64,000 bases of DNA from NCBI GenBank assembly GCA_000004985.1, contig GG738891.1; one strand, written 5' to 3'. The notes below the pieces were generated by a model. That model had not been told where the DNA came from, did not search any database, and was given only the letters and a program-made list of their open reading frames with translations. Positions 6,245 through 41,746 of the stretch are shown piece by piece. Both the position numbers and the translations under genes were made by a program. Positions within the stretch are counted from its first letter, which is position 1, and each line of letters begins with the position of its first letter. This stretch comes from Naegleria gruberi. Lineage: Eukaryota.

Positions 6245-6256
6245 CCAACCAATAAG

Positions 6257-6922
6257 ATGTCAACTAGAAAAAACAAATCTAAGGCAGCTGCTCCAAAGAG
6301 GAAGAATCAATCTGATGAAGATGAATCAAGTACTGATACAGATAATGATTCTGAACCAAGCAAGAAAAAACAATTTAAACCATCTTCCAGTAAACAACTA
6401 GTGAAGACAGTGAAGAAGACCATGTCAGTTCATGATTCAGATAGTGATGAATCCACCACTGAAGATTCAGAAAATGGTACTGGTGACTCCACAGAATCTG
6501 TCTATTTTCAAGTTCGTCACGTTAATGGAAAACGGGAATATGTGATTGTTCCAGAGCATGTCGATTACATCTTTGATTTGATAGATAAGGACAAAGCTTT
6601 TCCAGAGTTCATCAATGCCATTATCCAATGTGAAAAGGTATTAACTGACCTCACAAAAAGGTTTGCTCATCTATTTTCAGGGCTTGCATTCAACACTACC
6701 GTAAATGGTATAACTTATTCAATTCCTCCAGACATTATCAAAATGCTTATTGGTAATGTGACTCAAAAACAGTGCTTGGAATTGTTAGCACATCATCACT
6801 TCAAGAAACCTATAGGAGAACTCACAACTGATCAAAGAACAGTATGTAGAAAGTTCTTTGAAGCAAGGGGATGGGATAAAGAAAGTGTTCGGAAGGCAAT
6901 CAATAGTTTGATCAAAGAATAA
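6257..6922 (+). CDS. Transposon-internal ORF of 221 aa: a basic N-terminus (KNKSKAAAPKRKNQ) and an acidic tract, then a globular C-terminal part. Possibly an accessory or DNA-binding protein of the element, or the C-terminal part of a larger ORF lost in the gap.
   Basis: The ORF starts immediately after the N-run and lies between the TIRs. No DDE/DDD motif is visible in the sequenced part. Confidence 0.35.
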   Translation: MSTRKNKSKAAAPKRKNQSDEDESSTDTDNDSEPSKKKQFKPSSSKQLVKTVKKTMSVHDSDSDESTTEDSENGTGDSTESVYFQVRHVNGKREYVIVPEHVDYIFDLIDKDKAFPEFINAIIQCEKVLTDLTKRFAHLFSGLAFNTTVNGITYSIPPDIIKMLIGNVTQKQCLELLAHHHFKKPIGELTTDQRTVCRKFFEARGWDKESVRKAINSLIKE

Positions 6923-7513: not shown

Positions 7514-7530
7514 AAAGAGCAGAAAAAAAT
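7514..7530. repeat. 17-bp direct repeat, copy 2. It ends in the ATG of the downstream peptidase gene.
   Basis: Identical 17-mer; the final AT plus the following G form the start codon at 7529-7531. Confidence 0.7.
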
Positions 7531-13325: not shown

Positions 13326-16300
13326 TTATTCAAATACCAATCTCAAATCAATTTGCACTGCAGATGGAATTTCTTCTTCCTTCTTCTTCTTTCTGAATAA
13401 TTTTCTAACAGATTCCGATGAAAAATTGGACAAGACCGATATGAAGGAATGTCTAGAATTTGTTGTTGAGTTTCCATCATCATCATCACCTCCTCCTCTG
13501 CCTACGCCTTTGCCTCCTCTCACAACAGTCACTGCTCCTTCTGAATTATGATCATCACCATCATCATTATCATGACTAATTGTGATGTTGTTGCTATGAT
13601 TTGAATGTGTATCCTCCTCTCCCCTTGTTGAAGGAGTTTCTCTTGGAGTTGGTGGAAGATAAATTGTTTCTCCCTCCACAATAGGATGATCTTCATTATA
13701 TATTATTGTTGTTGTACTCGTATTATTAATAGTATTATTTAAATTAATGATAGGAACAACAGGATGAGGATGAGGATTAAAAGGCTCGATATGAAGATGA
13801 GGTTTTTCATCATCACCATTATCACTTTCTACATCGACATCAATTGCTGTTGTCATTGAAAGTGCTCTTCTTCTTCTATTCCGATGATGACGAAGAATGC
13901 TCGATTTACCACAACAATAACAACACCACCAACAGCAACAACAAAACTGCAGGCAAGGAATGGCTAGACAACATAATTCTCCATAGAAACAATAGTAGGC
14001 ATAGCAACCAATTGTTACAGAGCAACACAAAACCATAGCACCAACCACCACAGCAATGATAATGCCTATTAACATACTCTGATCATCTATATAAATCTTC
14101 TTTTGGACAATGAAGAGATTGAGTGTGGAGGAGACAAGATTGGTCATGTTGAAAGTGACAGAACATTTGCAGGTTGCCATTGTTGAATTGATAATTGTAA
14201 CTATGCAATTTGGATTATCTTCGATGGATAGTGTACTGATTGAGATTGAGGCACATGAATATGATGTATTGACCTCTTTGAAGAACAATTGACCCAAATT
14301 ACTGTCATCTTGAGTAGTAGTAGTATTCTCTAGCAGTGGAATATGGAATTCCAAGTCAATTATGGAAGATGATTTCAATAAGGCAACATCCAAATCACCA
14401 AAACCAAAAGCAATAATTTTAGATTGGAGAGAGGACTTTCTTCTAACTTTCTCAGAGAGAGTTTCTACTTTTGAGGCTAAATAATCACCAATGGAGAATA
14501 TATCATCCACCACAAGGAATGCTTGAAGGAATGGTTTGCTGGAATGTGTGGCCTTAATAGTATTATTTAACTGTACTTTGACACTTGTCAATGTTGAAGG
14601 TTCTATCAACAGCTGATGATTCGAATAGTCGTATAACCACACCAGTTCCATCACTCTTCTATAGAATGCTGCCTTCTTAAAGACTTTTGTTCTTGTCTTT
14701 GGTTGACTTCTGGCTTCTAGATGGGAGGTAAACTTGAGAGTTGTAAATAATTGTTGTGCATTTGAAGCTTGTTTGGTAAAGAATCGTTTCTCAAGGATGA
14801 ATTGGAAGGCAGAATCAATGACAGAGTCCAAACAAAAGTCAACACCCACTGGAAGTTTCAAGCTTTCATCAGCAATCACCTTAACAAGATATTTGACAAG
14901 TTGGGATAGAGCTTCTGATACTGTATTTGTATCAAGATGTTTGAAGTTATACAGAATCGAGTCTACAGTAAATGCAGCTATGGAAATGAGTTGATTATCC
15001 ATCATTATTTCTGTACCATTTGCTAACATTCTCAATAGTTGTAGATTCTTGTTTTGATATTCTGCAAAATCCTTGATGGTATTTTCACAAGCAACCCCAA
15101 CAAAACCTTCCCTACACATACAGGTATCCTTTTTCAAAATTCCACCATTCTTACATGTGAGACTTCTTGTCAATGACCTAGTATTTTCATATATTGAAAT
15201 TGGTTCAATTTTTGTGATGGCTCTATTCAGAAGGGCAGTAGAAGTTCTAGATATGGCTGCTGATTGATAGAGTGATCCCAATAGCGACTCTTCTTTTGCC
15301 TGTTTAATCCATTGTTGAGCTAAAACTTGTACTTGTGAAAAGGTTGAATATGAGCGAGTTTGAATGCTTACATTCATTGATTCTATAGTTGATGCTTGTG
15401 TGGCTGTATTGATTACCTCAAAGAAACATGTAACTGTCTCACCAATGAATGCTGTAGGAAGTTGTTTCGAATAGCCAACATCAATATTATGCATGTAAAT
15501 TTTTACACCAGACCTATCATCAATGAAACCATATCTGTAATCTAAATGATCTTCTTCACTTTTACAATTCATGCAAATGAATTCAAATTCTGTTTCTACT
15601 GCAAAACCATTCAAAGGAGTAATGGTACAATAACACATTGGAGGAGGGGAGGCAACACTGAAACTGTACTGAATCAATGAAGCAACATTTGCATTTGGAT
15701 CATAAGCTGACAGAGTAATAATATTATTGGAGCCAGCATTTAACAAACTTGGATCAATATTAATGTAATCTGAACTTGTGGAACCAACAATAACATTATT
15801 AACAATTACCGTATAATTGGTAATTAAAGATGTTCCAGGAATGAGAGAGGTCTGTAATGTTAGAGTATCACTAACAAGAAAGTATTCCTTCTTTGGGTAA
15901 ACATTAATAATGTTAATTATTGGTGGAATATACGTAAAATGGATAGTAGTCGATTTATGAATACTTCTTCCATCAGATTTAGTAACTTTAAGATCTAGTT
16001 CTAGTGATAGTGGAGGAACGGGGAAAAGAGCTGCATCAATTTTGAAGTTCGTTGACTTTTCTGAGGATAGTACTGAGAGAAACTCTAATAAGAGCTCATT
16101 GACGTTATTGTCCAAGCATGTCCATTCCCACACTTCTGTAGAGTATGCGTTGTAAACCATTTCAGGATCTGTATAATCTACATTAATTATGGTATAATTG
16201 GGTTGTGCATCAAAAGTAATTAAGTTCAAGTATAGATCTGGAGGTTTGGTGATTAAGGTTACAACTGAAACATCTTTGATGTTAGGATTGGATGGATAGT

Positions 16301-19300
16301 AGACAGATACTTGGAATTTATAGATCTGGTAACCAAATGTTTCTAAAGAGACGTAGAGGTCAGAGTATTTATCCATACTGTATCTGATTTTTGGTCCACT
16401 CAATTGAGTCCATTCAATGATTGAATTTTCTGATTTGCATGAAGATTCTGACACTATTTTCTTGATGGTAATAGGAAATTGAGTAGTTACTTTTTCAATA
16501 GTTGTTTGTGGAACATATAATGCTGGAAGAGGGCTTTCTGCTTTTGAAAATATGGAAGAATATACAGTTGAGCTATTTACAATATTTCCCACCACAAGAG
16601 AAACTAAATATTTTCCTTGTGGAAGGGTTGAATCTAGCTTAATTAATGGAGTATTGGGGAAATTGAATGGAATAATTTGGAACACATGGTCTGTCTCATT
16701 GAACAAGGTCCAGTAATAGTCAAGTGGTGTATTATTTGGAGATATACTGAGCGAGCCATCAATGATAATCTCATCACAGGAGCTATAGAATTCTGAGAGT
16801 AGATTTATGGATGCTGTTGGAGCGATAACTTTTTCATTTTCACACCAAATGCCATAATATCCATTCTCACATTGGCATTGATTGTAATCTATGCATACAC
16901 CTCTTCCAGAACAAACATTAGAATCATTCGAAAGTAGAGAATCACATCGTGTCAACTCACAATTCACACCAACATGATTACTGGTGCATGTACAATTATC
17001 AAAGCTTGAACAATTACCACGATTTGAACACACCAAAGGATTGGTATTATTCAGACCGAAACAAGAGTATTGTTCACAACTTTCACCGAAATAGCCGTCA
17101 GAGCATTGGCAAGTATCCAAATCAATGCAATTACCCTTTCCAGAGCAAACAGTTTCTTTTTCACTTGATGAAATGTTGAAACATGTGGTCAACTCACAAT
17201 TAGCTCCATGATACTTTTCTCCACATGTACAATTATTGTAGGATGAGCAAAATCCTCTACCAGAACAAACCTTTGAATCGGCATGCTCTGTTCCATTACA
17301 ATCAAAATAATTACATAGATCTCCATAAGTTCCTAATTGACAAGAGCACTTATTCACATCAATACATTGGCCATTTCCAGAACACACTGTCGAGTTGTCT
17401 TTTTCAATACCAAAGCATGAAAATTCTTTACATTCCACACCAGTATATCCTGAACGACATTTACAATCATCAAAATCAACACATTCACCTCTTCCTGAAC
17501 AAACATTTTGAGTTTCATTGCTCAAAACACCAAAACAACTTGTCACTGAACAATCTAATCCGAAATAATGTGATACACATTCGCACTCATCTGTTTCAGT
17601 ACAACTTCCGTGCCCAGAGCAAACTCTGGAATCAGTTCTATTCATTCCATAACAAGAATAATATTGGCAGTTGTCTCCGTAATATCCTTCAGAACAATTG
17701 CATTGATTGAATCGATAGCAATTTCCTTTTCCAGAGCAAACTTGAGGATTTGATGAAGATACATTGAAACACACATAAGATTCACATTCTTCTCCATGAT
17801 ATCCATGCTCACATGAGCAATTATTAGGAGAAACGCATTGACCATGACCTGAACAAGCCAATGGTTCTGAATGTTGCACATTAAAACATGAGAAATTGTC
17901 ACATTCCTTTCCATAGTAACCAGATACACATGTGCAATTATCAAAATCAACACATTCACCTCTTCCAGAACAAACACTTGAAGAATTGGAAAGTTTGGAG
18001 AAGCAAGTAGTGATGGAACAGTTCAAATCCATATAGTTCTCATCACATTGGCATTGATCCAAGCTGGAACAAGTTCCTCTTCCAGAACAAACATTGGAAT
18101 CTGAAGAATTGAATCCAAAACATGTGTAAAGTTCACAAAATTCACCAAAATATCCATATTCACATTGGCAATTATTAAATGTTTCACATGAACCATGCTT
18201 GGAACAAACTGAGCTATTGGAAGATGAAATTCCATCACAAGTAGTTTCTTGACAGAATGAACCAAAGTAATGTTCTACACATTCGCATGTGTCATGTTGC
18301 TTGCATTCACCACGTCCATTACAAACTCTTGAATCATTACTTAATAATCCCTCACAGGATGTCACTTGACATTTATCACCCCACCAATTGTTTGAGCAGT
18401 GACATGTATCGGGTCCAACACATATTCCATTTCCAGAACATGATATGTTTAAAGTTTTCGATTCATTAAAACATGAAAATTCGTCACAATTTGATCCAAA
18501 ATAATCAATTTCACATTGACATAAATTAAAATCAATGCATTGACCATGTGAGGAACAAACTAGATTGGTTTGATTCGATGGGATGGAAGCACAGGTGGTG
18601 AGTTGACATTCTTCTCCGAAATAGTTTGGTAGACAAAAGCATTCGTCAAGTTTCGAACAATTTCCTCTTCCAGAACAAACACTTTTGGTTTCAGTATGAT
18701 TAATTCCAAAGCAAGCATAATTTTCACAATCCATGCCTGAATAACCATTCTCACATTCGCAAATTTCAGATTTTAAGCATTTTCCGTGTTTGGAACAAAC
18801 TGAACTATTTAAATGCTCAATTCCATTACAATAAAATTCTTCACAATTTGATCCAAAATAACCAGTATTACAAGTGCAATTGTTAAAATCATTACAGTTA
18901 CCATTTTTGGTACAAACAGTCGAGTCATTTGACATTATTCCAAAACAAGAGGTTACGTCACATGCCAATCCAAAGTAATTTTCTTGACATTCACAATTTC
19001 CAAAATCTGAACAATTTCCTCTTCCTGAACAAACTAACACATCATTTTGAGTAATATTGTTACATGTGTAATATTGACATTCATCACCAAAATATCCAAA
19101 TTTACAAGAACAAGTATTGTAATCAATACATTTTCCTTTTCCAGAACAAGCTCGTGAACTGGAAGATATTTCAGCACCACAACTTGTCAATTGACAATAA
19201 TCTCCAAAATAGTGAGCTTGACATTTACAATTATTGTAAGAAGTACAATTTCCTTTTTGGGAACAAACAACAGAAGAATTGGTATTGTTAATGCCATTAC

Positions 19301-22300
19301 AAGTATAATATTGGCATTCTTCTCCGAAATATCCATCATTACAACGACATGAATTGTAATCAATACATTGGCCGTTAGAGGAACAAGCAGTTTCGTTTTG
19401 GTTGGAATATTCGAAACATTCGAATATCTCACAATTGAAGCCCCTGTAATTAAGCGAGCAGTTACATTGATTGTAATCAATGCAATTACCCTTTGATGAG
19501 CAGACTGTTGAATTTAGAGATGATACTGAGCTACATGTGGTCAACTCACAATTTTTTCCAAAATAATTTTCTTCACAAGTACAATTATCGAAACTTGAGC
19601 ATTTTCCTCGAGAAGAGCAAACTTTAAAATCGACATTTGATATTCCATGACATGAAAAATATTGACATTCGTCTCCAGAATATTCATCATTTTCACAAGC
19701 GCAATTATTAAAGGAAGTACATTTGCCGAAACCAGAACAAACTGAAGAGTTATAAGATTCAATTCCATTACAAGTGGTAATTTCACAACTCAATCCAAAA
19801 TAATTCATTTCACATTGACAGGTGTCAAAATCAACACAAGCTCCATAACCAGTACAAACCAAACTGTCATTACTCAATATTCCATTACAACTTGTCACTT
19901 GACACATTGATCCAAACATATTTTCCTTACATTCACAAGTATTTACATCAAGACATTTGCCACGACCAGAACATGACAAGTTGGAGAATTTGGAAATTTC
20001 AAAACAATTGAAATTTTCACATGAATCTCCATAATAATCAGCTGTGCAATTACAAGTATTGTAATCTATACATGTTCCCTTTGATGAGCAAACAGAACTT
20101 TCATTGGATTGAATATTATTACAAGTGGTCAATTCGCAATTATTTCCAAAATAGGAATCAATACAGGTGCAATTATCAAAACTCGAACATTTTCCTTTTG
20201 AAGAACAAACAGATTCCAAAGTATTGTTCACATTGAAACAAGTATAAAATTGACAATCATTTCCAAAGTATCCTTCGTCACATTCGCAATTCTCAAAACT
20301 TTTACAATGACCTCTTGATGAGCAAACTGAGGAATTGTAATGTTCAATGCCATTACAGTTAAATAATTCACAATTGGTTCCATAATATCCTTCATTGCAT
20401 TCGCAGAAATCAAAATCTGTGCAATTTCCTTTTCCAGAACAAACATTAGTTTCGTTTGAAAGTGTTGAATTACAACTGGTCAATTGACATTCATCTCCTA
20501 AATAATTAAGGAAACATGAACAATTATTTGTTGAATAGCATTCTCCACGTGAATGACAAACAGATGAGTTGATATTCAAAATGTCAAAACATTTGAATTC
20601 AGAACAATCAGAACCAAATGAATTTTCAAAACATTGACAGGTGTCAAATTGTGAACAAACTCCATTTCCAGAACATGTCAAATCTGTTACATTGGATGGA
20701 ACTCCAAAACATACAGTAACTTGGCAGAATTGACCAAAATAATTTTCAGTGCAATTACAACTATCTGTTTCAATACAATTACCACGTCCTGAACAAACAA
20801 TTGATTCATTACTCAATGTTCCATTACATTTGTATAATGAACAGTCAGCTCCGTAAGCATCTGGTTGACATTGACAGGAATTCACATCAGAACATTTGCC
20901 TCTGCCAGAACAAACTAATTGTGATTGATTTGAAGGAATGGAAAAACAATCAGTCACTTGACAATAATCTCCATAATATCCATCTCTGCATGAACATTGA
21001 TTTGGTGATAGACATTCTCCTCTTCCAGAACAAGTAATTGTTTCATTACTAAAAATGGAATTACATATTGTAACTGAACAATTCAGTCCAAAGTAATTAA
21101 AATCACATTCACACAAATCTGTTTCTGAACAAATACCATGTCCAGAACAAACCAAAGATTCACTATTATTCAAACCAAAGCAAGTGTGGAATTGACAATT
21201 CTCTCCATAATATCCCTCAGAACAATTACAATGATTGTAAGAAGAACAATCACCTTTTCCAGAACAAACACTGTTATTGGTCATATCAAGTCCAAAACAA
21301 GATGTTCTCTCACAAAATTCACCATAGTATCCATCCGTACAATTACAAATATCTTTTGCAACACAATTTCCATTGGAATTACAAACACTTGTCAAATTAC
21401 CAAAAGTTCCATTACATTTGGATATGGAACAATCCTCACCAAATGCATCTGGAAGACAAATACATGAATCTATATCTGAACAATTGCCTCTTCCTGAACA
21501 AACTGTAGAGTCCAAGTTGAGTGTGCCAAGACATGAGAATTGAGAACAAGTTATTCCTGAATAACCTGGTTTACAAGTACAATTATTGAAAGAAGAACAT
21601 AAACCGTGAGAGGAGCATACTTGAGTGAAATTGGAAACAATATTTTCACAAGTCGTGAGCTGGCAGAATGGACCAAAATAATTTGCCGTGCAATTACAGA
21701 TATCTGGATTAATACACGAGCCACTTCCGCTACAAACAAGGGAATCATTACTTGGAATACCATTGCACAATGTAAATTCACAATTTGTTCCATAAATTTG
21801 AGAATTATTGCAATGACAATTGTTAACATCTGAACAAACGCCCCTTGAGGAACAAACTGATGAGGAATTTCTGTTAAATCCAAAGCAATCATATTCTTGA
21901 CAGTCAGATCCATAGTATCCTTCCTCACATTCACAATTATTGTATTGAGTACAATTACCGCGACCTGAACAAACAATTGTGGAATTTGAAACGATATTTG
22001 AACACGTTGTGAACTGACACCATTCACCAAAGTAATGTTTGGAACAGTTGCAAACTTTGAAATCGGTACAAATACCATTCTTTGAACAGACTAATGAATC
22101 ATTTGCAGTAATATTGTTACAATATGGAATTTCACAATTCAATCCAGTATAACCATATTTGGAATCACAATTACAATTATTATATGAATCACAACTTCCA
22201 TGTCTACTACAAACACGTTGATCATTAGATCCAAAACCATAACATGTTGTAAAATCACAAAAAGTTCCAGCATAATTCAAGTCACATTCACAAACGTCCA

Positions 22301-25300: not shown

Positions 25301-28300
25301 TAGTGCCAGAGAAACCTGCTCTACAAGAGCATGTATTGTAATCTGTACAATAACCATGTCCACTACAAACCATCGAATCATTGGAAATAAGCCCAAAACA
25401 AGTAGTCAACTCACAATTCACACCCAAATATCGTGAAGATGAGCATGTACAAGTATTAGCATTCGAACAAGTTCCTCTTCTCGAACAAACATTAGGATTT
25501 GAAGCATTCAAACCGAAACACATGGAAACATTGCACCAAGTTCCAGTAAATTTCGAATAATCAGCGCAAGTGCAATTATTGAAAGGCCAACAAGTTCCAT
25601 GCCCACCACAAACTAATGAAGAATTTGAAGATGAAATGGAAGCACAAGTTGTTTGATTGCAATTTGGTCCAAAATAATTGGATTTACAGGAACAAGTGTC
25701 AGTTGCCAAACAACTTCCCAATCCATTGCAAGTTTGTGTGGAATTACTCCAAATGCCAAAGCATTTCTGAATGGAACAATTCGTTCCATAATATCCATCG
25801 TAACATTTACATGTGTCAATAGCAGAACAAACACCTTTTCCACTACAAACATTTGTTGAATTTTTGAGAATTCCAAAACATTTGTAAATTTCACAATTAC
25901 TTCCAGAATATCCTGTCTTACAAGTACAATTGTTGTAATCAATGCATTTACCAAATCCTGAACAAGTTAGTGAATTATTTGATTCAATTCCACCACAAGT
26001 TGTCAAATCACAGAATTGACCATGATAACGTTGTGAACAGTTACAAACATCTGGATAGATACATGAACCATGAGTATTACAAACTGATGAAAGAGAAGCC
26101 TTTGTTCTATTGCAAATAGGAATTTCACAATCTAATCCAGTATAACCAAACTCTGAACTGCAATTACAATTATTGTAAACTTGACAAGAACCTCTTTCTC
26201 TACAAGCCAAGGAAGAATTTGATGAAACACCATTACATGTGGTTAGCTCACAGAATTTTCCGTAATAATGAGCATTACACTCACAAATGTCTTTGGCAGA
26301 ACAAATTCCTCTACCAGAACAAACAGTTGATATGTTACTGAAAATTCCATCACATTTAGATATGGAACAATCACTTCCATAGGCATCCTCTGAGCATACA
26401 CAAGTGTTATAATCTATGCATTGTCCTCTTCCATGACATGTACTATTTAAATTTGAAGAAACATTATAGCAAGAAGTGTAATTACAAAAATCTCCGATAT
26501 ACTTTTCATGAGTATCAAAAGTTAATGGTACAGCAAGAGAAACTTCATGTAAAATTGAGGTAGAGCTTCCTGTTACCCATAATTGACCATCAAACGGTCC
26601 TATTACCGTCATTGATCCAGAATAATTGGGAATGTACGTTCCAAGAATTGGTGGTAAATAATTTGTCAACTTGTTTCCTCCTTCAATCACAGTGGAACCA
26701 CCAATTATCCAGAAAAAGTTTCTATGGGATGCACATTCCAGTAGCAATATGTTTGCATTAGTAATTGTAAGAGACTGAACTTTGAAAATCACTAGTTCAG
26801 TACCAATAATTACAATTCTTTGGGACGAGTTGATTGTCCAAGTGAAATCAAAACAAAATACCCCAGATTTTCTAACAACAAGTTCTTTAGGTATTTGTGA
26901 TGAGCTGGTAAATCGTTGAGTGCAGGCCATTGCTATCAAGCTAGTTCTTTTTCTCTTCATTTTTTGAATAATCACATTTGACAGCGAGATAGAACTTTTA
27001 GTCATGGTTGCCTTTCCCTTGGATTTTAAAGTAATTCCGGTACTACTCATAGAACCATAAATAATACTTGATCCAAAGTACCTAGTTAAGCTGTTTACAA
27101 CTGGCTGATAATAGTTGTTCGAATATTCAATTTCGAATACACCTGGAGTATCAGAAATGAGACCATACCCAGCAAACATATCATACATGAATCTTTCACA
27201 ATAGATTCCATCATATTCGTCCTGACAAGAGCATGTTTCGTACAAATTACAAGCTCCATGTCCATTACAAACAAACGAATCATTCGAAGCAGTTTGGTTA
27301 CAAGTTGTCAGTTGACACCAATCACCATAATAATGATCATTACATAAACAGCTATTAGGGGATGTACACTTTCCGTGTGAGCTACAAACATTCGAATTAT
27401 CGCTATAAGTTCCATTACAAATTGTAATCTGACAATTCAATCCAAAATAATTTGGAATACAGGAACAAGTATTTGGGGCCATGCATGAACCTTTAGAAGA
27501 ACAAGTTGAATTCAACAAGCTAGATACTCCATTGCAATCATACTTATTACAAATTGTATCGTAATAACCTGATTTACATGTACAAGTTTCGAATGCAGTA
27601 CAAGTACCATGTGAGGAACAAACGGCCGTGTTATTCGATTCAGTTCCATTACAAGTAGTTACCTCACAATTAACACCATAGTAATGTTCTTTGCAGTGAC
27701 ATGTATTTGGTTCTGTGCAGTTACCTCTACCTGAGCAGACTTTCGAATCAGTGGCAGGTTTAGAATAACAAACAGGGATTTGACATTCAGATCCAGTATA
27801 TCCCTTTAGAGGATTACAAACACAAGTATTATAAGGCCAACAAGTACCCCTTTCATTACAAACGGTGGTGTTTGTGGAATTAATTCCAAAACATGTTGTA
27901 AATTGACATTTGAAGCTTTCGTAATTTGGTTTACAGACACAGGTGTCAGTATCTACACATGTGCCTTCTCCGCTACAAACATGTGATACATCATTACTTA
28001 AATACCCATAACACTTGGAAATTGAGCAATCATTTCCATAATATCCATCTCTACATTTACAATTATTGTAATCTAAACATTCACCTCTTCCAGAGCAAGT
28101 TGTGTTTGAATTTCTATTGATTCCATAACAATTAAATTCTTGACAATTATTTCCGTAATAGTTCGTCTTACAATCGCACTTTTCAAAGGCAGAACAAGAA
28201 CCATGAGATGAACAAACAGTTGAATTTGTTGAATTAATTTCTGAACATGTTGTCACTTGACATAGATCACCAAAGTAATGATCTGAACAATTACATACAG

Positions 28301-31300
28301 AAGGAGAGATGCAAGAACCATGTGCACTGCATACTGCACTACCAGTTGCCAAAATTCCTTTACAAATAGGAACTTGGCAATAGCTTCCTCCATATCCATA
28401 ATTGGAATTACAAGAACAGTTTTCATATTTGATGCATTGTCCTCTTCCACTGCAAACATCTGAAGAATTGCTGGAAATACCTCCACAAGTAGTCAATTCA
28501 CAGAAAGTTCCATAATAATTAGCATTACAAGAACAAGTATCTGGTCCTACACATTTTCCTCGAGTGGAGCAAACTGAAGATGTATTGCTATATGTGGAGT
28601 TACATAAGAACAAGGAGCAATCTAATCCAAAAGCACCTTCTAGACACTTGCATGTATCAATATCGACACAAACACCCTTTCCTGAACAAGTTGTATTTGA
28701 GTTGGATTTTTCATTGTAACATGTTGTAAAGTTACAAAAATCTCCAACTATTTGATCATAAGGATCAAATGTTATAGGAGCTGTAAACTTCACATTACTT
28801 AATTCTATCATCCCTAAATTCCAAATCTGACCTTCAACAAGACCACTAATTGGCAAATAGTCAACCGATGAAACAAGAGTTCCATACAGAGGACCCACAA
28901 CACGTGAAGTGAAATTCACAGACTTTCCTATGAACCAATAAACATTTCTAAATGACGAACATTCTAAATGAATCATTGAAACATTCTTATAATCAATACT
29001 TGGTGCTTTGAATACAATTGTCTCTGTACCAATTATTGTAATCTTTGTAGAAGAAACTGTTAAAGTTGAATTAAAGCAATAGACTCCTCCCTTTCTAATT
29101 ACCATAGAATTTGCAAAGAATGATAGAGAATTTGATATGTAATAGTTGCATCTCAATAGATTTAACTCTTGAACTTTTTCTTTCATTTGTCGAAGCAATT
29201 CTATACCAATTGGTTGACTTGTATTTGTAATGATAGCATTTCCATTAGAAATGTATTCGTATTGACCTTGAGAAACATTCATTGATGGTATAGCTATACT
29301 TGCCATCAAAGGGGAATTAGTTTGCAAGTTGATTTTTACATTGATTTTCGACTCACTGATTAATTTGTATCCAGCAAAGTAATCATGAATGAAAAGTTCA
29401 CAATTTGAACCATTATAACGAGTTACACATTCACAGATATCATAATCTAGACATTTTCCGTTTCCAGAACAAGCTAATGAAGAATTAGAAACCTCGCCAA
29501 AACATGTTGTCATTTCACACAAACTTCCCAAATAATTGCTATCACATGAACAGAGATCTGTAGAAGTACATGATCCGTGAGAGCTACATACAGAAGAAAC
29601 GTTGCTAAATACCCCGTTACATGTAGTTACTTCACAAGTATTTCCATAGAAATTTGTATTGCATTCACAAGTGTCTATATCAATACAATTTCCATTTTTG
29701 GAGCAAGATAAACCAGAGGCCATTCCTATTCCAAAGCAATCATATTCCTGACAAATCTTACCATAATAACCTTCCATGCATGAACAATTGTTAAAATCTG
29801 TGCATTCACCATGTCCAGAGCAAACCAAAGAATCATTTGAACTGATTCCATCGCATGTGGTCAACTCACATAAATTTCCAAAGTATGTGTCACTGCAATT
29901 ACAATAATCCAGCAATACACAATTTCCTCTATGGTTACACACCGTTTCATTGGTAGATATTATACCTTTGCAATATGTAAGTTCACATGAAAATCCCTCA
30001 AACCCTTCAAAACAAGTACAATTCTCAGCCATCGCACAAATTCCATTTCCATTACAAACAGTTGTGTCATTTGACAATACTCCACCACACAAGGTTTCAG
30101 AGCATGTCTCACCAAAATAGTTCAATTCGCAAAGGCAACTGTTTGTACTATGGCAAGAACCTCTTCCAGAGCAAACAGAACTGTCATTACTCGAAATACC
30201 ATTACAATAGGAAATTTCACACATCGCTCCCTCATATCCTTCTTCACATTGACAAGAATCAATATCTAAGCATTGACCCCTTCCAGAACAAACTTTACTA
30301 TTGTTCAAAGATAAACCGAAACAATTAAAAATTTCACATTCTTGTCCATAGTATCCTTGGGCACATTCACAATAATTGAAAGAAGAACAACTTCCTCTCA
30401 TGGAACAAACTGATGTAGAGTTGGATTCTAATCCAAAACACGTGGTTGATTGACAGAATTCTCCATAATAATTATCTGTACAATTGCAAATATTAACATC
30501 AATACATTGACCTCTTTCTGGTTGAGTGCAATAACCAACCAATCCATTGCACGTTGGAATATCACAATTGGATCCTCCATAAAGAAATGATGCATCACAA
30601 GAGCAATTATTAAATTTCTCACATGAACCTCTTTGATTACAGGCATTTGGTGATAAATTTGAAATACCATCACAAGTTCTGAATTGACACCAAGTACCAT
30701 TATTTCCATATTCACAAAGACAAGTATCTGTAGAGATACATTGACCATTTCCACTGCATGCATTCGATTCATTTCCAAGTACTCCATTACATTTGGAAAT
30801 AGAACAATCGTGTCCATAACTTTCTGAAGGACACAAGCATGCGTCCAAGCCAACACATAATCCCCTTCCTCCACAAACGCTCGCCTCACTCGATAACACT
30901 CCAAAACAATAGGTACTTAAGCATTGTGCAGTAATATAGGTATCATATGGATTGAAAGTTATTGGCGGACTAAACACGAGATCAAAAACAATCAATTGAG
31001 TTCCTCCGACATACCAGATTGCTCCTTGGACATTGTGGTAAACCTCCAAGCTGTAATAAGGAGAGGCTCCTATCACTGTACCATGAATTGTTCCTGTGAA
31101 AAAGTTGCCATTCAATCCTCTATCAAATGTCAACCAGAAAAAGTTTCTGTAAGAGGCACATTCCAAGTAATAGAAAGTGGCTCCATAGTAGTAGACAAAA
31201 GGAGTTTTGATTACAACAGGTTCTGTACCAATCACTACAAAAGTATAAGATGAATCTATGGCCAATCCATTTGGAAAACAATACACTCCTCCATGTTTGA

Positions 31301-32750
31301 AAATTGCACTCTTATTAGATCCAAAAAATGGTTCCTGATTGGAAAAGGTAAAATCACATGGTTTCTCAATAATTTCTTGAGCTCTTTTTTCCATGGCTTG
31401 AACAATTTGATCACCTAAAGGGTTTGTATCGTGTGTGTAAGAAATTGATGCGTAAACTTCGTCATCTGCCAAAACAAATGGTTCTGGAGGTGTTGATACA
31501 TAGGCTGTCGATAAAATCATTGATGGAAGAGCAATACTTGCAGAAAGAATGTTATTTGGAGCAGAGTTTCTTCCAATTACAACAGGTCTTGTACTAATGA
31601 GCTTGTAACCTGCTAAAATATCAACTTCACACAAATTCCCTTCAAATCCAGAAGGACATTCACATGTTTGATAGTCTGAGCATTTACCAACTCCTGAACA
31701 AGTAAACCTTGAATTGGATACAACCCCTCCACAAGATGTTAATTCACACAATTCACCAAAATAATTATTAGAGATGCACGAGCATTGATTAGGGCCAATG
31801 CACGAACCTCTCGAATTACAAGCAGTACTATTGGTATTCTCTACCTCTCCACATTTGAAAAGCTCACATTCTTCTCCATAAGCACCAGTGGAGCAGAGAC
31901 AAGTATCTAACTGTGTGCAATTTCCTCTTGAAGAACAAACATTGCTCATATTGGAGAGTTTATCAAAACAGGTGCTAATTTCACATTCCATACCAGAATA
32001 GCCATCAGAGCATGAGCATGTATTGTTGTCGGTGCAGTTTCCTCGTGAGTTGCAAACATTGAAATGGTCTTGTTGGATGCCAAAACATGAAATGGAAATA
32101 GATTCAGATGAGGAATTGTTGGAAAGAGTGGTTTCATTATTAGATATTTGGGTGTTGTTGTTTTCAATAGACTCACAATTCAAACCTGAGTAACCTATTG
32201 AACAATTGCAAAAATCAAATTCAATACATGTACCAGAGCCAGAACATACTTCGCTCTCATTACTAAGTAATCCAAAACAAGATGTTATGGAACAATTTTC
32301 TCCAATGTAATTAATATCGCATTTACATGTATCTGGTCCAATACATTGACCGTGTTGGGAACAAGTCGTATTGAAATCATCAGGGTCCAGTCCATAACAT
32401 TGATAGTTTTCACAGTCGGCACCAAAATATCCACTCTCACATATACACTCTGTTCCATTACTCTCCGAAGAACAATTGCCTCTACCAGAACAAACTTCAG
32501 TGATTGAAGAATTGTAAAAAGATGTTGTATCATTAGAACATGATATAGCAGAGACATTCCAATAATGATGAAGGTGTCTATCACTCAACATGAAGAAAAG
32601 AAGTTGTATCAATAGAAGAAGTGAAATGAGTCTATGTATCATTAGAGTAGACCTCCTCTCTGTGTATGAACATTGAGCAGTAGATGCCTGCATCTTCAGT
32701 GTAGTTCCGTATCCTTCAGTAGTATGAAGCATATTAAAAGAGAGGAACAA
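13326..32750 (-). CDS. Giant (up to 6474 aa) single-exon type I membrane protein. It has a signal peptide, over 100 tenascin-type EGF-like repeats interrupted by five repeated roughly 230-aa modules, a roughly 1170-aa non-EGF juxtamembrane region, one TM helix and a cytoplasmic tail.
   Basis: Uninterrupted 19.4-kb ORF. Six-Cys periodicity CFG(L/I)xSNxSxVCSGRGxCx5CxCx3YxGxxCE repeats every about 31-33 aa. The N-terminal hydrophobic segment MIHRLISLLLLIQLLFFMLS gives a likely ATG at 32642. The C-terminal TM MLIGIIIAVVVGAMVL lies at about 14040-14090. The track start at 32750 is a TTG. Confidence 0.8.
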   Translation of the reverse strand: MFLSFNMLHTTEGYGTTLKMQASTAQCSYTERRSTLMIHRLISLLLLIQLLFFMLSDRHLHHYWNVSAISCSNDTTSFYNSSITEVCSGRGNCSSESNGTECICESGYFGADCENYQCYGLDPDDFNTTCSQHGQCIGPDTCKCDINYIGENCSITSCFGLLSNESEVCSGSGTCIEFDFCNCSIGYSGLNCESIENNNTQISNNETTLSNNSSSESISISCFGIQQDHFNVCNSRGNCTDNNTCSCSDGYSGMECEISTCFDKLSNMSNVCSSRGNCTQLDTCLCSTGAYGEECELFKCGEVENTNSTACNSRGSCIGPNQCSCISNNYFGELCELTSCGGVVSNSRFTCSGVGKCSDYQTCECPSGFEGNLCEVDILAGYKLISTRPVVIGRNSAPNNILSASIALPSMILSTAYVSTPPEPFVLADDEVYASISYTHDTNPLGDQIVQAMEKRAQEIIEKPCDFTFSNQEPFFGSNKSAIFKHGGVYCFPNGLAIDSSYTFVVIGTEPVVIKTPFVYYYGATFYYLECASYRNFFWLTFDRGLNGNFFTGTIHGTVIGASPYYSLEVYHNVQGAIWYVGGTQLIVFDLVFSPPITFNPYDTYITAQCLSTYCFGVLSSEASVCGGRGLCVGLDACLCPSESYGHDCSISKCNGVLGNESNACSGNGQCISTDTCLCEYGNNGTWCQFRTCDGISNLSPNACNQRGSCEKFNNCSCDASFLYGGSNCDIPTCNGLVGYCTQPERGQCIDVNICNCTDNYYGEFCQSTTCFGLESNSTSVCSMRGSCSSFNYCECAQGYYGQECEIFNCFGLSLNNSKVCSGRGQCLDIDSCQCEEGYEGAMCEISYCNGISSNDSSVCSGRGSCHSTNSCLCELNYFGETCSETLCGGVLSNDTTVCNGNGICAMAENCTCFEGFEGFSCELTYCKGIISTNETVCNHRGNCVLLDYCNCSDTYFGNLCELTTCDGISSNDSLVCSGHGECTDFNNCSCMEGYYGKICQEYDCFGIGMASGLSCSKNGNCIDIDTCECNTNFYGNTCEVTTCNGVFSNVSSVCSSHGSCTSTDLCSCDSNYLGSLCEMTTCFGEVSNSSLACSGNGKCLDYDICECVTRYNGSNCELFIHDYFAGYKLISESKINVKINLQTNSPLMASIAIPSMNVSQGQYEYISNGNAIITNTSQPIGIELLRQMKEKVQELNLLRCNYYISNSLSFFANSMVIRKGGVYCFNSTLTVSSTKITIIGTETIVFKAPSIDYKNVSMIHLECSSFRNVYWFIGKSVNFTSRVVGPLYGTLVSSVDYLPISGLVEGQIWNLGMIELSNVKFTAPITFDPYDQIVGDFCNFTTCYNEKSNSNTTCSGKGVCVDIDTCKCLEGAFGLDCSLFLCNSTYSNTSSVCSTRGKCVGPDTCSCNANYYGTFCELTTCGGISSNSSDVCSGRGQCIKYENCSCNSNYGYGGSYCQVPICKGILATGSAVCSAHGSCISPSVCNCSDHYFGDLCQVTTCSEINSTNSTVCSSHGSCSAFEKCDCKTNYYGNNCQEFNCYGINRNSNTTCSGRGECLDYNNCKCRDGYYGNDCSISKCYGYLSNDVSHVCSGEGTCVDTDTCVCKPNYESFKCQFTTCFGINSTNTTVCNERGTCWPYNTCVCNPLKGYTGSECQIPVCYSKPATDSKVCSGRGNCTEPNTCHCKEHYYGVNCEVTTCNGTESNNTAVCSSHGTCTAFETCTCKSGYYDTICNKYDCNGVSSLLNSTCSSKGSCMAPNTCSCIPNYFGLNCQITICNGTYSDNSNVCSSHGKCTSPNSCLCNDHYYGDWCQLTTCNQTASNDSFVCNGHGACNLYETCSCQDEYDGIYCERFMYDMFAGYGLISDTPGVFEIEYSNNYYQPVVNSLTRYFGSSIIYGSMSSTGITLKSKGKATMTKSSISLSNVIIQKMKRKRTSLIAMACTQRFTSSSQIPKELVVRKSGVFCFDFTWTINSSQRIVIIGTELVIFKVQSLTITNANILLLECASHRNFFWIIGGSTVIEGGNKLTNYLPPILGTYIPNYSGSMTVIGPFDGQLWVTGSSTSILHEVSLAVPLTFDTHEKYIGDFCNYTSCYNVSSNLNSTCHGRGQCIDYNTCVCSEDAYGSDCSISKCDGIFSNISTVCSGRGICSAKDICECNAHYYGKFCELTTCNGVSSNSSLACRERGSCQVYNNCNCSSEFGYTGLDCEIPICNRTKASLSSVCNTHGSCIYPDVCNCSQRYHGQFCDLTTCGGIESNNSLTCSGFGKCIDYNNCTCKTGYSGSNCEIYKCFGILKNSTNVCSGKGVCSAIDTCKCYDGYYGTNCSIQKCFGIWSNSTQTCNGLGSCLATDTCSCKSNYFGPNCNQTTCASISSSNSSLVCGGHGTCWPFNNCTCADYSKFTGTWCNVSMCFGLNASNPNVCSRRGTCSNANTCTCSSSRYLGVNCELTTCFGLISNDSMVCSGHGYCTDYNTCSCRAGFSGTNCQNDLFAGYKLITNKKLNLVKNSRSNSYLLASIAIPLMVTEKYQFQYVSNGDAVIKNTTTSSGQILSQELTKKVTELIALPCTVNVTNPDLELTTSITIRGGMVYCLKQGWTINKMSLTIIGTEQVVFKAPYFNYIGSKVSYLECATYRNLLFLSTDANSNLTISGTVQGTMIANSNADLTVTGDIQGSLMIHSPNSKGNLNFKDVKLSAPITFNPQDSYYDGTFCSRVNCYGIVSTSNMTCSGRGKCVDFDTCICNSDSYGPQCSLSFCNGILSNVSNVCSGHGRCVAKDTCQCDFGHNGTFCEFTTCAGVSKYSPLVCNSSGICDYFDNCTCRTEMGFGGPNCDIPICNNLVGICTAPGRGACFAPNNCSCSQNYYGTFCQFTSCFGIENTNSSVCSGRGRCYAFDQCTCSAGFSGTLCENDIFAGYKLISNIPIVLVKNSLDNAPLSASIAIPSFVINPPNYVYPDPVYPYVANGSAIVTNSSENYGLELVQQVSNKMQELLALPCDYMIKNPDTDMGRNIIINRGGVYCMENGWTINGQKFTIVGIEPVVFKLPFVHYFGADFTYLKCATYRNVFWLTYYFSSGNANWVYNPAIHGNTFSGNVHGTVIARYGHDFIVSDNIQGAIWSTCTEGGYLILKQAKFSQPSTFDPLQPYVREDCNLFTCFDLLPNSPTVCSGNGNCTDFNTCSCRPDTFGVDCSVLYCNGTLGNETLVCNGHGKCTKTDVCSCEEGHYGEWCQFTTCNLIENTSPLVCNLRGLCENFNNCTCNETLGYGGSDCDIPICNGLIGKCTDVGRGNCSNPDVCSCIEPYYWGSFCELTSCYGVDSQHSQVCNGKGKCTAYDTCECSYGYFGFNCSEFSCFGVFNSNETCSKNGKCVDYNKCECNEFSFGLECELTYCNGTMSNDSRVCNSRGTCYGPNYCNCSQNYFGDWCELTTCDRVDSNNRSVCSGRGICSEYNRCECREGYFGSNCEFTTCDSISSNSSLVCNNFGKCVDMDVCECDLNYAGTFCDFTTCYGFGSNDQRVCSRHGSCDSYNNCNCDSKYGYTGLNCEIPYCNNITANDSLVCSKNGICTDFKVCNCSKHYFGEWCQFTTCSNIVSNSTIVCSGRGNCTQYNNCECEEGYYGSDCQEYDCFGFNRNSSSVCSSRGVCSDVNNCHCNNSQIYGTNCEFTLCNGIPSNDSLVCSGSGSCINPDICNCTANYFGPFCQLTTCENIVSNFTQVCSSHGLCSSFNNCTCKPGYSGITCSQFSCLGTLNLDSTVCSGRGNCSDIDSCICLPDAFGEDCSISKCNGTFGNLTSVCNSNGNCVAKDICNCTDGYYGEFCERTSCFGLDMTNNSVCSGKGDCSSYNHCNCSEGYYGENCQFHTCFGLNNSESLVCSGHGICSETDLCECDFNYFGLNCSVTICNSIFSNETITCSGRGECLSPNQCSCRDGYYGDYCQVTDCFSIPSNQSQLVCSGRGKCSDVNSCQCQPDAYGADCSLYKCNGTLSNESIVCSGRGNCIETDSCNCTENYFGQFCQVTVCFGVPSNVTDLTCSGNGVCSQFDTCQCFENSFGSDCSEFKCFDILNINSSVCHSRGECYSTNNCSCFLNYLGDECQLTSCNSTLSNETNVCSGKGNCTDFDFCECNEGYYGTNCELFNCNGIEHYNSSVCSSRGHCKSFENCECDEGYFGNDCQFYTCFNVNNTLESVCSSKGKCSSFDNCTCIDSYFGNNCELTTCNNIQSNESSVCSSKGTCIDYNTCNCTADYYGDSCENFNCFEISKFSNLSCSGRGKCLDVNTCECKENMFGSMCQVTSCNGILSNDSLVCTGYGACVDFDTCQCEMNYFGLSCEITTCNGIESYNSSVCSGFGKCTSFNNCACENDEYSGDECQYFSCHGISNVDFKVCSSRGKCSSFDNCTCEENYFGKNCELTTCSSVSSLNSTVCSSKGNCIDYNQCNCSLNYRGFNCEIFECFEYSNQNETACSSNGQCIDYNSCRCNDGYFGEECQYYTCNGINNTNSSVVCSQKGNCTSYNNCKCQAHYFGDYCQLTSCGAEISSSSRACSGKGKCIDYNTCSCKFGYFGDECQYYTCNNITQNDVLVCSGRGNCSDFGNCECQENYFGLACDVTSCFGIMSNDSTVCTKNGNCNDFNNCTCNTGYFGSNCEEFYCNGIEHLNSSVCSKHGKCLKSEICECENGYSGMDCENYACFGINHTETKSVCSGRGNCSKLDECFCLPNYFGEECQLTTCASIPSNQTNLVCSSHGQCIDFNLCQCEIDYFGSNCDEFSCFNESKTLNISCSGNGICVGPDTCHCSNNWWGDKCQVTSCEGLLSNDSRVCNGRGECKQHDTCECVEHYFGSFCQETTCDGISSSNSSVCSKHGSCETFNNCQCEYGYFGEFCELYTCFGFNSSDSNVCSGRGTCSSLDQCQCDENYMDLNCSITTCFSKLSNSSSVCSGRGECVDFDNCTCVSGYYGKECDNFSCFNVQHSEPLACSGHGQCVSPNNCSCEHGYHGEECESYVCFNVSSSNPQVCSGKGNCYRFNQCNCSEGYYGDNCQYYSCYGMNRTDSRVCSGHGSCTETDECECVSHYFGLDCSVTSCFGVLSNETQNVCSGRGECVDFDDCKCRSGYTGVECKEFSCFGIEKDNSTVCSGNGQCIDVNKCSCQLGTYGDLCNYFDCNGTEHADSKVCSGRGFCSSYNNCTCGEKYHGANCELTTCFNISSSEKETVCSGKGNCIDLDTCQCSDGYFGESCEQYSCFGLNNTNPLVCSNRGNCSSFDNCTCTSNHVGVNCELTRCDSLLSNDSNVCSGRGVCIDYNQCQCENGYYGIWCENEKVIAPTASINLLSEFYSSCDEIIIDGSLSISPNNTPLDYYWTLFNETDHVFQIIPFNFPNTPLIKLDSTLPQGKYLVSLVVGNIVNSSTVYSSIFSKAESPLPALYVPQTTIEKVTTQFPITIKKIVSESSCKSENSIIEWTQLSGPKIRYSMDKYSDLYVSLETFGYQIYKFQVSVYYPSNPNIKDVSVVTLITKPPDLYLNLITFDAQPNYTIINVDYTDPEMVYNAYSTEVWEWTCLDNNVNELLLEFLSVLSSEKSTNFKIDAALFPVPPLSLELDLKVTKSDGRSIHKSTTIHFTYIPPIINIINVYPKKEYFLVSDTLTLQTSLIPGTSLITNYTVIVNNVIVGSTSSDYINIDPSLLNAGSNNIITLSAYDPNANVASLIQYSFSVASPPPMCYCTITPLNGFAVETEFEFICMNCKSEEDHLDYRYGFIDDRSGVKIYMHNIDVGYSKQLPTAFIGETVTCFFEVINTATQASTIESMNVSIQTRSYSTFSQVQVLAQQWIKQAKEESLLGSLYQSAAISRTSTALLNRAITKIEPISIYENTRSLTRSLTCKNGGILKKDTCMCREGFVGVACENTIKDFAEYQNKNLQLLRMLANGTEIMMDNQLISIAAFTVDSILYNFKHLDTNTVSEALSQLVKYLVKVIADESLKLPVGVDFCLDSVIDSAFQFILEKRFFTKQASNAQQLFTTLKFTSHLEARSQPKTRTKVFKKAAFYRRVMELVWLYDYSNHQLLIEPSTLTSVKVQLNNTIKATHSSKPFLQAFLVVDDIFSIGDYLASKVETLSEKVRRKSSLQSKIIAFGFGDLDVALLKSSSIIDLEFHIPLLENTTTTQDDSNLGQLFFKEVNTSYSCASISISTLSIEDNPNCIVTIINSTMATCKCSVTFNMTNLVSSTLNLFIVQKKIYIDDQSMLIGIIIAVVVGAMVLCCSVTIGCYAYYCFYGELCCLAIPCLQFCCCCWWCCYCCGKSSILRHHRNRRRRALSMTTAIDVDVESDNGDDEKPHLHIEPFNPHPHPVVPIINLNNTINNTSTTTIIYNEDHPIVEGETIYLPPTPRETPSTRGEEDTHSNHSNNITISHDNDDGDDHNSEGAVTVVRGGKGVGRGGGDDDDGNSTTNSRHSFISVLSNFSSESVRKLFRKKKKEEEIPSAVQIDLRLVFE

Positions 32751-35222: not shown

Positions 35223-35295
35223 GTACCCTTGGCTCAATTGGAAGAGCATCGGCCTACGGAGCCGGGGGTTGTGGGTTCGAGTCCCACAGGGTATA
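35223..35295 (+). tRNA. tRNA-Arg (anticodon ACG), 73 nt, no intron.
   Basis: Cloverleaf by hand. Acceptor GTACCCT/AGGGTAT (G-U at 1:72). D-arm GCTC-AATTGGAA-GAGC. Anticodon arm TCGGC-CTACGGA-GCCGG, the same loop as known eukaryotic Arg-ACG. T-arm GTGGG-TTCGAGT-CCCAC. Discriminator A. Confidence 0.85.
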
Positions 35296-37179: not shown

Positions 37180-37260
37180 GCAGGGGTTCCCGAGTGGTCA
37201 AAGGGGGTAGACTCAAGTTCTACTGCGCAAGCTTCGTGGGTTCAAATCCCACCTTCTGCA
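37180..37260 (+). tRNA. tRNA-Leu (anticodon CAA), 81 nt, long variable arm, no intron.
   Basis: Acceptor GCAGGGG/CTTCTGC (two G-U pairs). D-arm CCC-GAGTGGTCAAA-GGG. Anticodon arm GTAGA-CTCAAGT-TCTAC. 12-nt variable arm. T-arm GTGGG-TTCAAAT-CCCAC. Discriminator A. Confidence 0.85.
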
Positions 37261-41698: not shown

Positions 41699-41746
41699 CT
41701 TTACAATAAATGTTAACTATTTAAAAACTACTAAAAGGTAACTTAC

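Follow-up and report, generated by a model that had tools for sequence, protein, structure and literature searches.

The membrane-proximal part of polycystin-1 consists of an REJ module followed by a GAIN domain of ~320 residues, which carries the GPS motif with its His-Leu-Thr cleavage site (PMC4810088). DUF3494 domains occur in ice-binding proteins as well as in proteins for substrate binding or adhesion; their hosts, polar or temperate, belong to all domains of life, and horizontal transfer has been frequent (PMC12337378). Here we describe a gene of Naegleria gruberi that joins an REJ module and five DUF3494-like modules to more than 100 EGF repeats. It lies on the minus strand, at 13326..32750, of a 64,000-nucleotide (nt) stretch of contig GG738891.1 (the window, to which all coordinates refer). 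Residues are counted from the TTG that opens its 6,474-codon frame. An earlier reading of the window, made from its letters only (the sequence-only reading), had described an EGF-repeat megaprotein here.

From the N-terminus to the C-terminus, the domain order is a signal-like stretch, 103 EGF repeats in six arrays separated by five DUF3494 modules, REJ, one further EGF repeat, a juxtamembrane region, a transmembrane helix and a tail. The reading frame, the composition and order of the domains, and the existence of a family of paralogs are all well supported. With modest confidence, we lean towards reading the whole as a membrane-anchored, glycosylated stalk of ~6,440 residues with five DUF3494 domains, which would serve as a long-reach adhesion or surface-recognition protein.

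An uninterrupted frame of 6,474 codons

13326..32750, minus strand: complete open reading frame of 6,474 codons, closed by its stop codon; one frame free of internal stops and of N, and coding-type GC content by codon position
32580..32642, minus strand: probable start ATG (codon 37) and signal-like stretch MIHRLISLLLLIQLLFFMLSD; Kyte-Doolittle peak 2.17, with upstream ATG alternatives at codons 7 and 20

In the mechanical list of open reading frames (ORFs) and their translations, 13326..32750 is one stop-free frame of 6,474 codons, closed by a stop codon at 13326-13328 and ~12 times longer than the next longest ORF of the window. There is no N in the DNA and no X in the translation. In the other five frames of the same interval, stops number 275-722 per frame and the longest stretch left open is 179 codons. 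GC (guanine plus cytosine) content by codon position is 0.36/0.46/0.23. Given the ORF's own base composition, the log10 probability of 6,474 codons without a stop is -212 (~1e-212). Together, these observations identify the ORF as real coding sequence, and bear out the claim of a single uninterrupted minus-strand ORF.

The 6,474-codon count begins at a mechanical TTG. In-frame ATGs are found at codons 7 (32730-32732), 20 and 37 (nt 32642), the last of these immediately before the hydrophobic signal-like stretch MIHRLISLLLLIQLLFFMLS, which has a Kyte-Doolittle peak of 2.17. Since the start would be the ATG at codon 37 or codon 7 and not the TTG, the protein would be 6,438-6,468 residues long. 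Hence, the length of 6,474 given by the sequence-only reading is correct for the frame and slightly too large for the protein. The same reading had proposed a signal peptide, with which the hydropathy peak after the codon-37 ATG agrees; judged by hydropathy, an N-terminal signal peptide is plausible.

We considered a hidden in-frame intron at an Asn/Ser-rich linker (residues 195-219) and rejected it: GTGAGT opens the linker, but no AG acceptor follows. No AT-rich intron-like segment was found anywhere in the ORF, the lowest GC content over 120 nt being 0.26; that of the window is ~33%. Judged from its sequence, the ORF is a single-exon gene of N. gruberi. Most N. gruberi genes are reportedly without introns, in which case the intronless state would be ordinary and size alone unusual.

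It is possible that the current N. gruberi protein set lacks the product of the giant gene, the largest seen of its family. Four full-length variants, starting at the ATGs of codons 7, 20, 37 and 54, were absent from a collection of 15 billion proteins by exact look-up. Similarly, an HMMER search with the module profile described below found no self match among 1.84 billion representative proteins; these are clustered at 50% identity, which makes the negative less telling. Word-indexed homolog searches also gave no self match. These searches missed the long paralogs P0003 and P0005 too, both of which were recovered by HMMER/BLASTP, and their silence therefore cannot prove that the giant gene is unannotated.

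Six arrays of diverged EGF repeats

31623..32522, minus strand: EGF array 1, 7 repeats, with a 25-residue Asn/Ser-rich linker at residues 195-219 (Pfam and self-built model)
29394..30914, minus strand: EGF array 2, 13 repeats (Pfam and self-built model)
27192..28727, minus strand: EGF array 3, 13 repeats (Pfam and self-built model)
25290..26477, minus strand: EGF array 4, 10 repeats (Pfam and self-built model)
24030..24614, minus strand: EGF array 5, 5 repeats (Pfam and self-built model)
16836..23303, minus strand: EGF array 6, 55 repeats with a period of 39 residues (Pfam and self-built model)
15081..15185, minus strand: isolated EGF-like domain after REJ, residues 5856-5890, conserved in paralogs (self-built model)

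A hidden Markov model (HMM) built from the protein's own repeats detected 104 EGF repeats, all with an expectation (E) value <1e-3; a strict six-Cys regular expression found 102. They form arrays of 7, 13, 13, 10, 5 and 55, plus the one isolated repeat at residues 5856-5890. The Cys spacing is kept in all 104 repeats, and the start-to-start distance is exactly 39 residues in 71 of 103 cases. Between repeats, pairwise identity averages 41% and reaches 68% at most.

An HMM search of the translated protein with EGF models had been suggested as a check on the sequence-only reading. In this search, Pfam EGF_2 (PF07974) scored 81.6-500.7 bits over four scanned segments (cut-off 22.1), and EGF_TEN (PF25024, Teneurin EGF) scored up to 474.6 bits (cut-off 65). 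These two models and EGF_Teneurin (PF23106) were far above their cut-offs throughout residues 77-5305. The proposal of more than 100 six-Cys EGF repeats of the tenascin/teneurin type thus holds, both for the self-built HMM and for the Pfam EGF models.

The 55-repeat array showed no clear supra-repeat, with identity by lag staying at 0.40-0.45. Tandem Repeats Finder reported no tandem array in the DNA of the giant ORF; direct-repeat families at 117-nt spacing have copies that are 60-81% identical to the reference copies. Because the EGF copies are diverged in DNA, Tandem Repeats Finder found no array and the ORF contains no N, a collapsed or expanded assembly is unlikely. This is in line with the earlier view that the repeats are diverged at the nucleotide level, without long perfect tandem repeats, and that the array is old rather than an artefact of assembly.

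The ectodomain contains 194 NxS/T sequons, as compared to 112 +/- 9 in shuffled sequences. From this excess, it would be heavily N-glycosylated.

Five modules related to DUF3494

30909..31628, minus strand: DUF3494-like beta-solenoid module 1, residues 375-614
28722..29399, minus strand: DUF3494-like module 2, residues 1118-1343
26472..27197, minus strand: DUF3494-like module 3, residues 1852-2093; the sole module with a direct, sub-threshold Pfam Ice_binding match
24609..25295, minus strand: DUF3494-like module 4, residues 2486-2714
23298..24035, minus strand: DUF3494-like module 5, residues 2906-3151; the copy used for structure prediction

Between the EGF arrays lie five modules of 226-246 residues that are 28-43% identical to each other. 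Module 3 matches Pfam Ice_binding (PF11999) with an E value of 1.7e-4 and 21.8 bits, under the gathering cut-off of 28.7; modules 1, 2, 4 and 5 have no match to this model. A profile of the five modules, run with HMMER against the 1.84 billion representatives, gave 11 matches. These comprise the N. gruberi proteins P0003, P0001, P0005, P0006/P0013 and P0008, the ENA fragment P0004, and five more proteins that match Pfam Ice_binding at E values of 8e-13 to 8e-68, including an "ice-binding family protein" from Nitrosotalea metagenome-assembled genomes. When 18 Naegleria module sequences were aligned to six of those Ice_binding domains with hhalign, the probability was 99.3% (E 7.8e-21, 150 columns), a score that is somewhat inflated because the comparison set was drawn from the module profile's own matches. 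Landmarks common to the modules and the Ice_binding domains are Cys ... [GP]GVYC ... VFK ... NVFW ... G-x-I.

Structural tests are free of that bias. The AlphaFold2 model of module 5, from an 18-sequence alignment, has a predicted local distance difference test (pLDDT) score of 88.8 and a predicted template modelling (pTM) score of 0.87, and is strand-rich with one long helix. With this model as query, the top 28 Foldseek matches in the PDB were all DUF3494 proteins; identity in the alignments to ice-binding protein structures is only 10-17%. On the evidence of sequence and model, the five modules are a divergent DUF3494/ice-binding-like beta-solenoid. Five unassigned modules of about 230 residues had been noted from the sequence alone; their number and size stand, and by profile, model and Foldseek they can now be assigned.

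Two other proteins with DUF3494 domains were encountered. The N. gruberi protein P0006/P0013 (XP_002675978.1, 685 residues) has a PhoPQ-activated pathogenicity-related domain (E 4e-94) and a DUF3494 domain that, at 44.1 bits, is above the Pfam cut-off. Hence, DUF3494 in N. gruberi is also found outside the EGF-REJ family. P0009, from a Logan assembly (1,295 residues), has Ephrin_rec_like, EGF_CA and three Ice_binding stretches, which suggests that Cys-rich repeats are joined to DUF3494 in another, probably eukaryotic, organism as well.

REJ module and juxtamembrane region

15186..16835, minus strand: REJ module region, residues 5306-5855; Pfam REJ match at residues 5462-5803, nt 15342-16367
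14076..15080, minus strand: juxtamembrane region, residues 5891-6225, ~335 residues, helix-rich then strand-rich (secondary structure from a poor model); conserved with four paralogs
14133..14261, minus strand: GPS-like Cys motif YSC...NC...ATCKCSVTFNMTNLV, directly before the transmembrane helix (paralog alignment; latrophilin-3 GPS matches)

The sequence-only reading placed a non-EGF region of about 1170 residues after the arrays. There is indeed a long region before the transmembrane helix, at residues 5306-6225, and it contains an REJ module, the lone EGF repeat and a juxtamembrane part with a GPS-like motif. Pfam REJ (PF02010) matches with 59.9-61.7 bits against a gathering cut-off of 25 (E 2.3e-16 to 6.5e-17), over profile positions 40-420 of 452. 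The juxtamembrane region is 24-32% identical to four paralogs and has a Cys motif at its end, just before the transmembrane helix. This motif is C..F......C.L...ATH.KC.CSKLTNVF in the paralogs (C-x-C-S-K-L-T-N-V-F) and YSC...NC...ATCKCSVTFNM in the giant protein.

The juxtamembrane family profile, searched against the whole PDB, had only three matches, all to latrophilin-3 (ADGRL3) at the GPS motif and with weak E values of 0.024-0.053. Pfam GPS was found in two paralogs, only at E values of 0.046 and 0.17, and the giant protein had no Pfam GPS or GAIN match at E<=10. A phmmer search of the C-terminal 1,171 residues against the PDB gave no match. The AlphaFold2 model of the juxtamembrane region, from a 3-sequence alignment, is poor (pLDDT 40.6), and its order of helices followed by strands is no more than compatible with GAIN, which has a helical subdomain A and a beta subdomain B; with this model, Foldseek gave no match at E<=0.001, which is uninformative. 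Nonetheless, the ~335 residues between REJ and the transmembrane helix match a GAIN domain in size and position, and a GAIN fold is a reasonable hypothesis for this region.

At the aligned cleavage positions, the giant protein has Val-Thr-Phe, and the paralogs have Lys/Thr/Arg-Leu/Phe-Thr/Gly. In the paralog alignment, the His-Leu-Thr/Ser autoproteolysis triad is absent from the giant protein's GPS-like motif. Self-cleavage at this motif is therefore not expected, and we infer that it is non-cleaving.

Membrane anchor and tail

14001..14075, minus strand: transmembrane helix, residues 6226-6250; hydropathy peak 2.92
13911..14003, minus strand: Cys-rich hydrophobic stretch to residue 6280, 12 Cys in 31 residues, then RHHRNRRRR (sequence and hydropathy)
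13329..13910, minus strand: cytoplasmic tail, 194 residues, low complexity, 32 Asp/Glu and 22 Lys/Arg; no Pfam domain

The one transmembrane helix and the acidic/basic tail of about 200 residues that had been proposed are both recovered, the former as a single strong hydropathy peak of 2.92 at residues 6226-6250 and the latter as 194 residues with 32 Asp/Glu and 22 Lys/Arg. Directly after the helix comes the Cys-rich stretch YAYYCFYGELCCLAIPCLQFCCCCWWCCYCC; the paralog P0002 has a shorter Cys run, FCCCCCRC. Because the basic run RHHRNRRRR comes after the transmembrane helix, the C-terminus would be cytoplasmic, and because it comes next to the Cys-rich stretch, that stretch would be a membrane-associated segment rather than a second pass. 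The predicted topology is thus that of a type I membrane protein, with the Cys-rich stretch probably S-acylated on the cytoplasmic face.

A family of paralogs in N. gruberi

A relative with the same five-module plan is P0003 (XP_002674088.1, NAEGRDRAFT_51207), a protein of 4,968 residues. P0003 was also considered as an ortholog from another species; this is ruled out, since its gene lies on another N. gruberi scaffold, of 358,576 bp, and is a paralog. P0003 is colinear with residues 276-3945 of the ORF, to which it is 46% identical across 3,727 alignment columns; its C-terminal part is 35% identical. The spacing of the five modules is 746/753/643/423 residues in P0003 as against 746/734/631/420 in the giant protein. 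Furthermore, modules 1 and 5 of the ORF are each closest to the P0003 module in the same position (53% and 56%), which indicates that the five-module plan predates the split of the giant gene and P0003.

Three shorter relatives share the region from REJ to the transmembrane helix: P0005 (XP_002669085.1, NAEGRDRAFT_75960, 2,641 residues) at 36% identity, P0001 (1,832 residues) at 33% and P0002 (1,810 residues) at 31%. Each has EGF repeats and one to three modules. The parts of the giant protein recur, with their order kept, in all four paralogs: EGF arrays, LFAGY...GGVYC...NVFW modules, REJ, a single EGF repeat, a conserved juxtamembrane region with a C-x-C motif, a transmembrane helix and a tail. 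The transmembrane helix and the Cys-rich membrane anchor are conserved in the family. In contrast to the paralogs, the giant protein is larger, has 55 EGF repeats in its last array, a much longer Cys-rich juxtamembrane stretch and a more diverged GPS-like motif (SVTF rather than SKLT). It is the largest member seen of an N. gruberi paralog family built from the same parts.

All four paralogs are named "predicted protein", and no paper describing the family turned up in literature searches that paired Naegleria with REJ, EGF, polycystin, teneurin or ice binding. The suggestion that the protein may be undescribed is therefore right as far as publications go; with the N. gruberi genome published and paralogs already in public databases, the family is uncharacterised rather than unseen.

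Other features of the window

An N run, representing a scaffolding gap, is found at 5280-6260, ~7 kb from the stop-codon end of the giant ORF; the scaffold is thus a gapped draft. Genes for tRNA-Arg (ACG; 35223-35295, plus strand) and tRNA-Leu (CAA; 37180-37260, plus strand) are intergenic, upstream of the giant gene. Two tandem paralogous genes at 41743-42927 and 43793-45127, both on the minus strand, are 66% identical over 407 alignment columns. Their products have several hydrophobic stretches, and no Pfam family was found in the first of the pair, which was the one scanned.

The product of the gene at 10272-11870 (plus strand) joins a RING finger with a BTB domain and with pentapeptide repeats, and is identical (100%, full length) to a 532-residue N. 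gruberi "predicted protein". It has several N. gruberi paralogs at 40-42% identity; four of them have PF07534, and one of these four bears the name TLDc domain-containing. Its more remote pentapeptide relatives come mostly from bacteria. The ORF at 7529-8851 (plus strand) has an N-terminal Peptidase_C39-like match (E 1.4e-8). It is a possible candidate for horizontal transfer, as this family is mostly bacterial.

Discussion

What might be the function of so large a surface protein? An adhesion or surface-recognition role would follow from the architecture. The EGF arrays could form a long, stiff, heavily N-glycosylated stalk. An EGF repeat spans 2-3 nm, at which the stalk would measure roughly 0.2-0.3 micrometres. 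The five DUF3494 solenoids displayed on it may bind surfaces, whether of the substrate, of prey or of other cells, and the REJ and GPS-like region would link the stalk mechanically to the membrane. Without the His-Leu-Thr/Ser triad, no self-cleavage would occur at the GPS-like motif. On the inner side, the Cys-rich segment would be S-acylated and the cytoplasmic tail disordered.

Several observations weigh against this interpretation. All five modules fall below Pfam's Ice_binding cut-off (21.8 bits at best, as compared to 28.7), and the hhalign score carries the inflation described above. Support for GAIN and GPS is weak, with a best E value of 0.024, no Pfam GPS match in the giant protein and a model of pLDDT 40.6. 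In the tail, no motif for signalling or cytoskeleton binding could be recognised, and its sequence is not conserved among paralogs. Finally, metagenome contigs scanned with alignments of the module and of the juxtamembrane region yielded no relatives.

We also propose, more tentatively, that the giant protein and its paralogs represent an unrecognised class of protist surface receptors. Prokaryote-type DUF3494 solenoids, perhaps acquired horizontally, would have been inserted several times into an EGF stalk of eukaryotic type, where they would act as heads that bind ligands, for example bacterial prey or polysaccharides of the substrate; an ancient REJ and GAIN-like unit would anchor the stalk. 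If this doubtful proposal were correct, the REJ/GAIN membrane-proximal design would extend to Discoba, a group distant from animals, where it would take a single-pass form that does not cleave itself.

An alternative to an adhesion or recognition protein is a structural component of a coat, matrix or cyst wall, with the ectodomain either released, through a protease or through cleavage at the GPS-like region, or forming a glycocalyx layer, and the transmembrane helix needed for delivery only. This is unlikely, though it accounts for the dominance of spacer-type EGF repeats, the ~194 N-glycosylation sequons and a low-complexity tail that is not conserved among paralogs. Some family members might be cleaved, since paralogs keep Leu-Thr at the GPS-like position. 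However, the motif of the giant protein is without the His-Leu-Thr/Ser triad, and both the transmembrane helix and the Cys-rich membrane anchor are conserved in the family.

A mechanosensor in the style of polycystin-1 or adhesion G-protein-coupled receptors, in which force on the ectodomain is read via the REJ-GAIN unit and passed to the cytoplasm, is improbable. There is a single transmembrane helix, Pfam scans detected no PLAT, PKD-channel or 7TM (seven-transmembrane) domain, and no known signalling domain was found in the tail. The REJ match is above the Pfam cut-off, the ~335-residue juxtamembrane region is close to the ~320 residues of a GAIN domain (PMC4810088), and the GPS-like motif matches the latrophilin-3 GPS at E values of 0.024-0.053. 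Yet the His-Leu-Thr/Ser triad is absent, and the GAIN fold itself is hypothetical, given the pLDDT 40.6 model and the uninformative fold search.

N. gruberi is a temperate soil and freshwater amoeba, for which an ice-binding or antifreeze surface protein, with five DUF3494 domains that bind ice as in polar microbes, is very improbable. The fold and the remote homology to DUF3494 ice-binding proteins would suit such a role, as would the existence of bacterial ice adhesins with DUF3494 on long stalks (Shewanella SfIBP, 6bg8, was among the fold-search matches). However, identity to ice-binding structures is only 10-17%, and organisms that are not polar have DUF3494 in substrate-binding proteins too (PMC12337378).

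Least credible is an error in the assembly of the repeats, or a pseudogene whose frame stays open by chance. The scaffolded draft does have an N gap at about 5280-6260, and exact look-up in the 15 billion proteins recovered none of the full-length products that four candidate ATGs would give, but the ORF contains no N and would be open by chance at ~1e-212, its repeats are 60-81% identical in DNA with no array reported by Tandem Repeats Finder, Cys spacing is conserved in all 104 repeats, and P0003 has the same module spacing on another scaffold.

To our knowledge, very little has been established on the means by which Naegleria amoebae adhere to surfaces or recognise the cells of prey and hosts. 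Giant proteins that are anchored in the membrane and each have five probable binding domains make an obvious candidate family for such a role. DUF3494 has been studied mostly as an antifreeze; the assignment of the modules would widen the contexts in which it occurs and favour the idea that many of its members serve in adhesion or substrate binding. The presence of REJ and a GPS-like motif in a single-pass discoban protein bears on the age of the membrane-proximal unit of polycystin-1 and adhesion G-protein-coupled receptors. Lastly, a 19.4-kb single-exon gene that is possibly absent from the protein set would illustrate that giant repeat genes can escape gene prediction.

Comparison with known receptors

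Whole-protein Pfam scans of the giant protein detected only EGF, REJ and weak Ice_binding matches. Its EGF repeats fit the Pfam Teneurin EGF models and the six-Cys tenascin-type pattern, as do those of teneurins and tenascins, but the EGF type is all that is shared. Neither teneurin parts (intracellular domain, NHL beta-propeller, YD-shell, toxin domain) nor tenascin parts (FN3, fibrinogen globe) were detected in the scans. The predicted topology is type I, with the transmembrane helix at the C-terminal end, whereas teneurins are type II and have about 8 EGF repeats; tenascins, unlike the giant protein, are secreted, and they have an N-terminal assembly domain.

The sea-urchin receptor for egg jelly, suREJ1, also joins an EGF module with REJ and a single transmembrane helix. 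More generally, the giant protein resembles REJ proteins (suREJ1, polycystin-1/PKDREJ) in having REJ in a large ectodomain near the membrane, followed by a GPS-type motif (PMC4810088). It differs from them in having more than 100 EGF repeats and five DUF3494 inserts, and in being without the His-Leu-Thr triad. Pfam scans found no C-type lectin, PKD-repeat, LRR, PLAT or PKD_channel region, and hydropathy indicates one transmembrane helix, with no 11-helix channel part. For adhesion G-protein-coupled receptors, there was likewise no 7TM match in the Pfam scans beside the one helix seen by hydropathy. As searches for the parts that define each of these families came back negative, the giant protein is not a teneurin, a tenascin, a member of the polycystin-1 family or an adhesion G-protein-coupled receptor.

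Among the DUF3494 proteins compared with the modules were AnpIBP (7bwx), a Flavobacteriaceae IBP (5uyt), ColAFP (3wp9) and Shewanella SfIBP_1 (6bg8). The host of the giant protein is not a cold specialist. In the proteins compared, DUF3494 stands alone or on bacterial Ig-like stalks, whereas here five copies lie inside a eukaryotic EGF array. The giant protein is unusually large and uncharacterised, yet it is built from known parts and is not a new kind of molecule.

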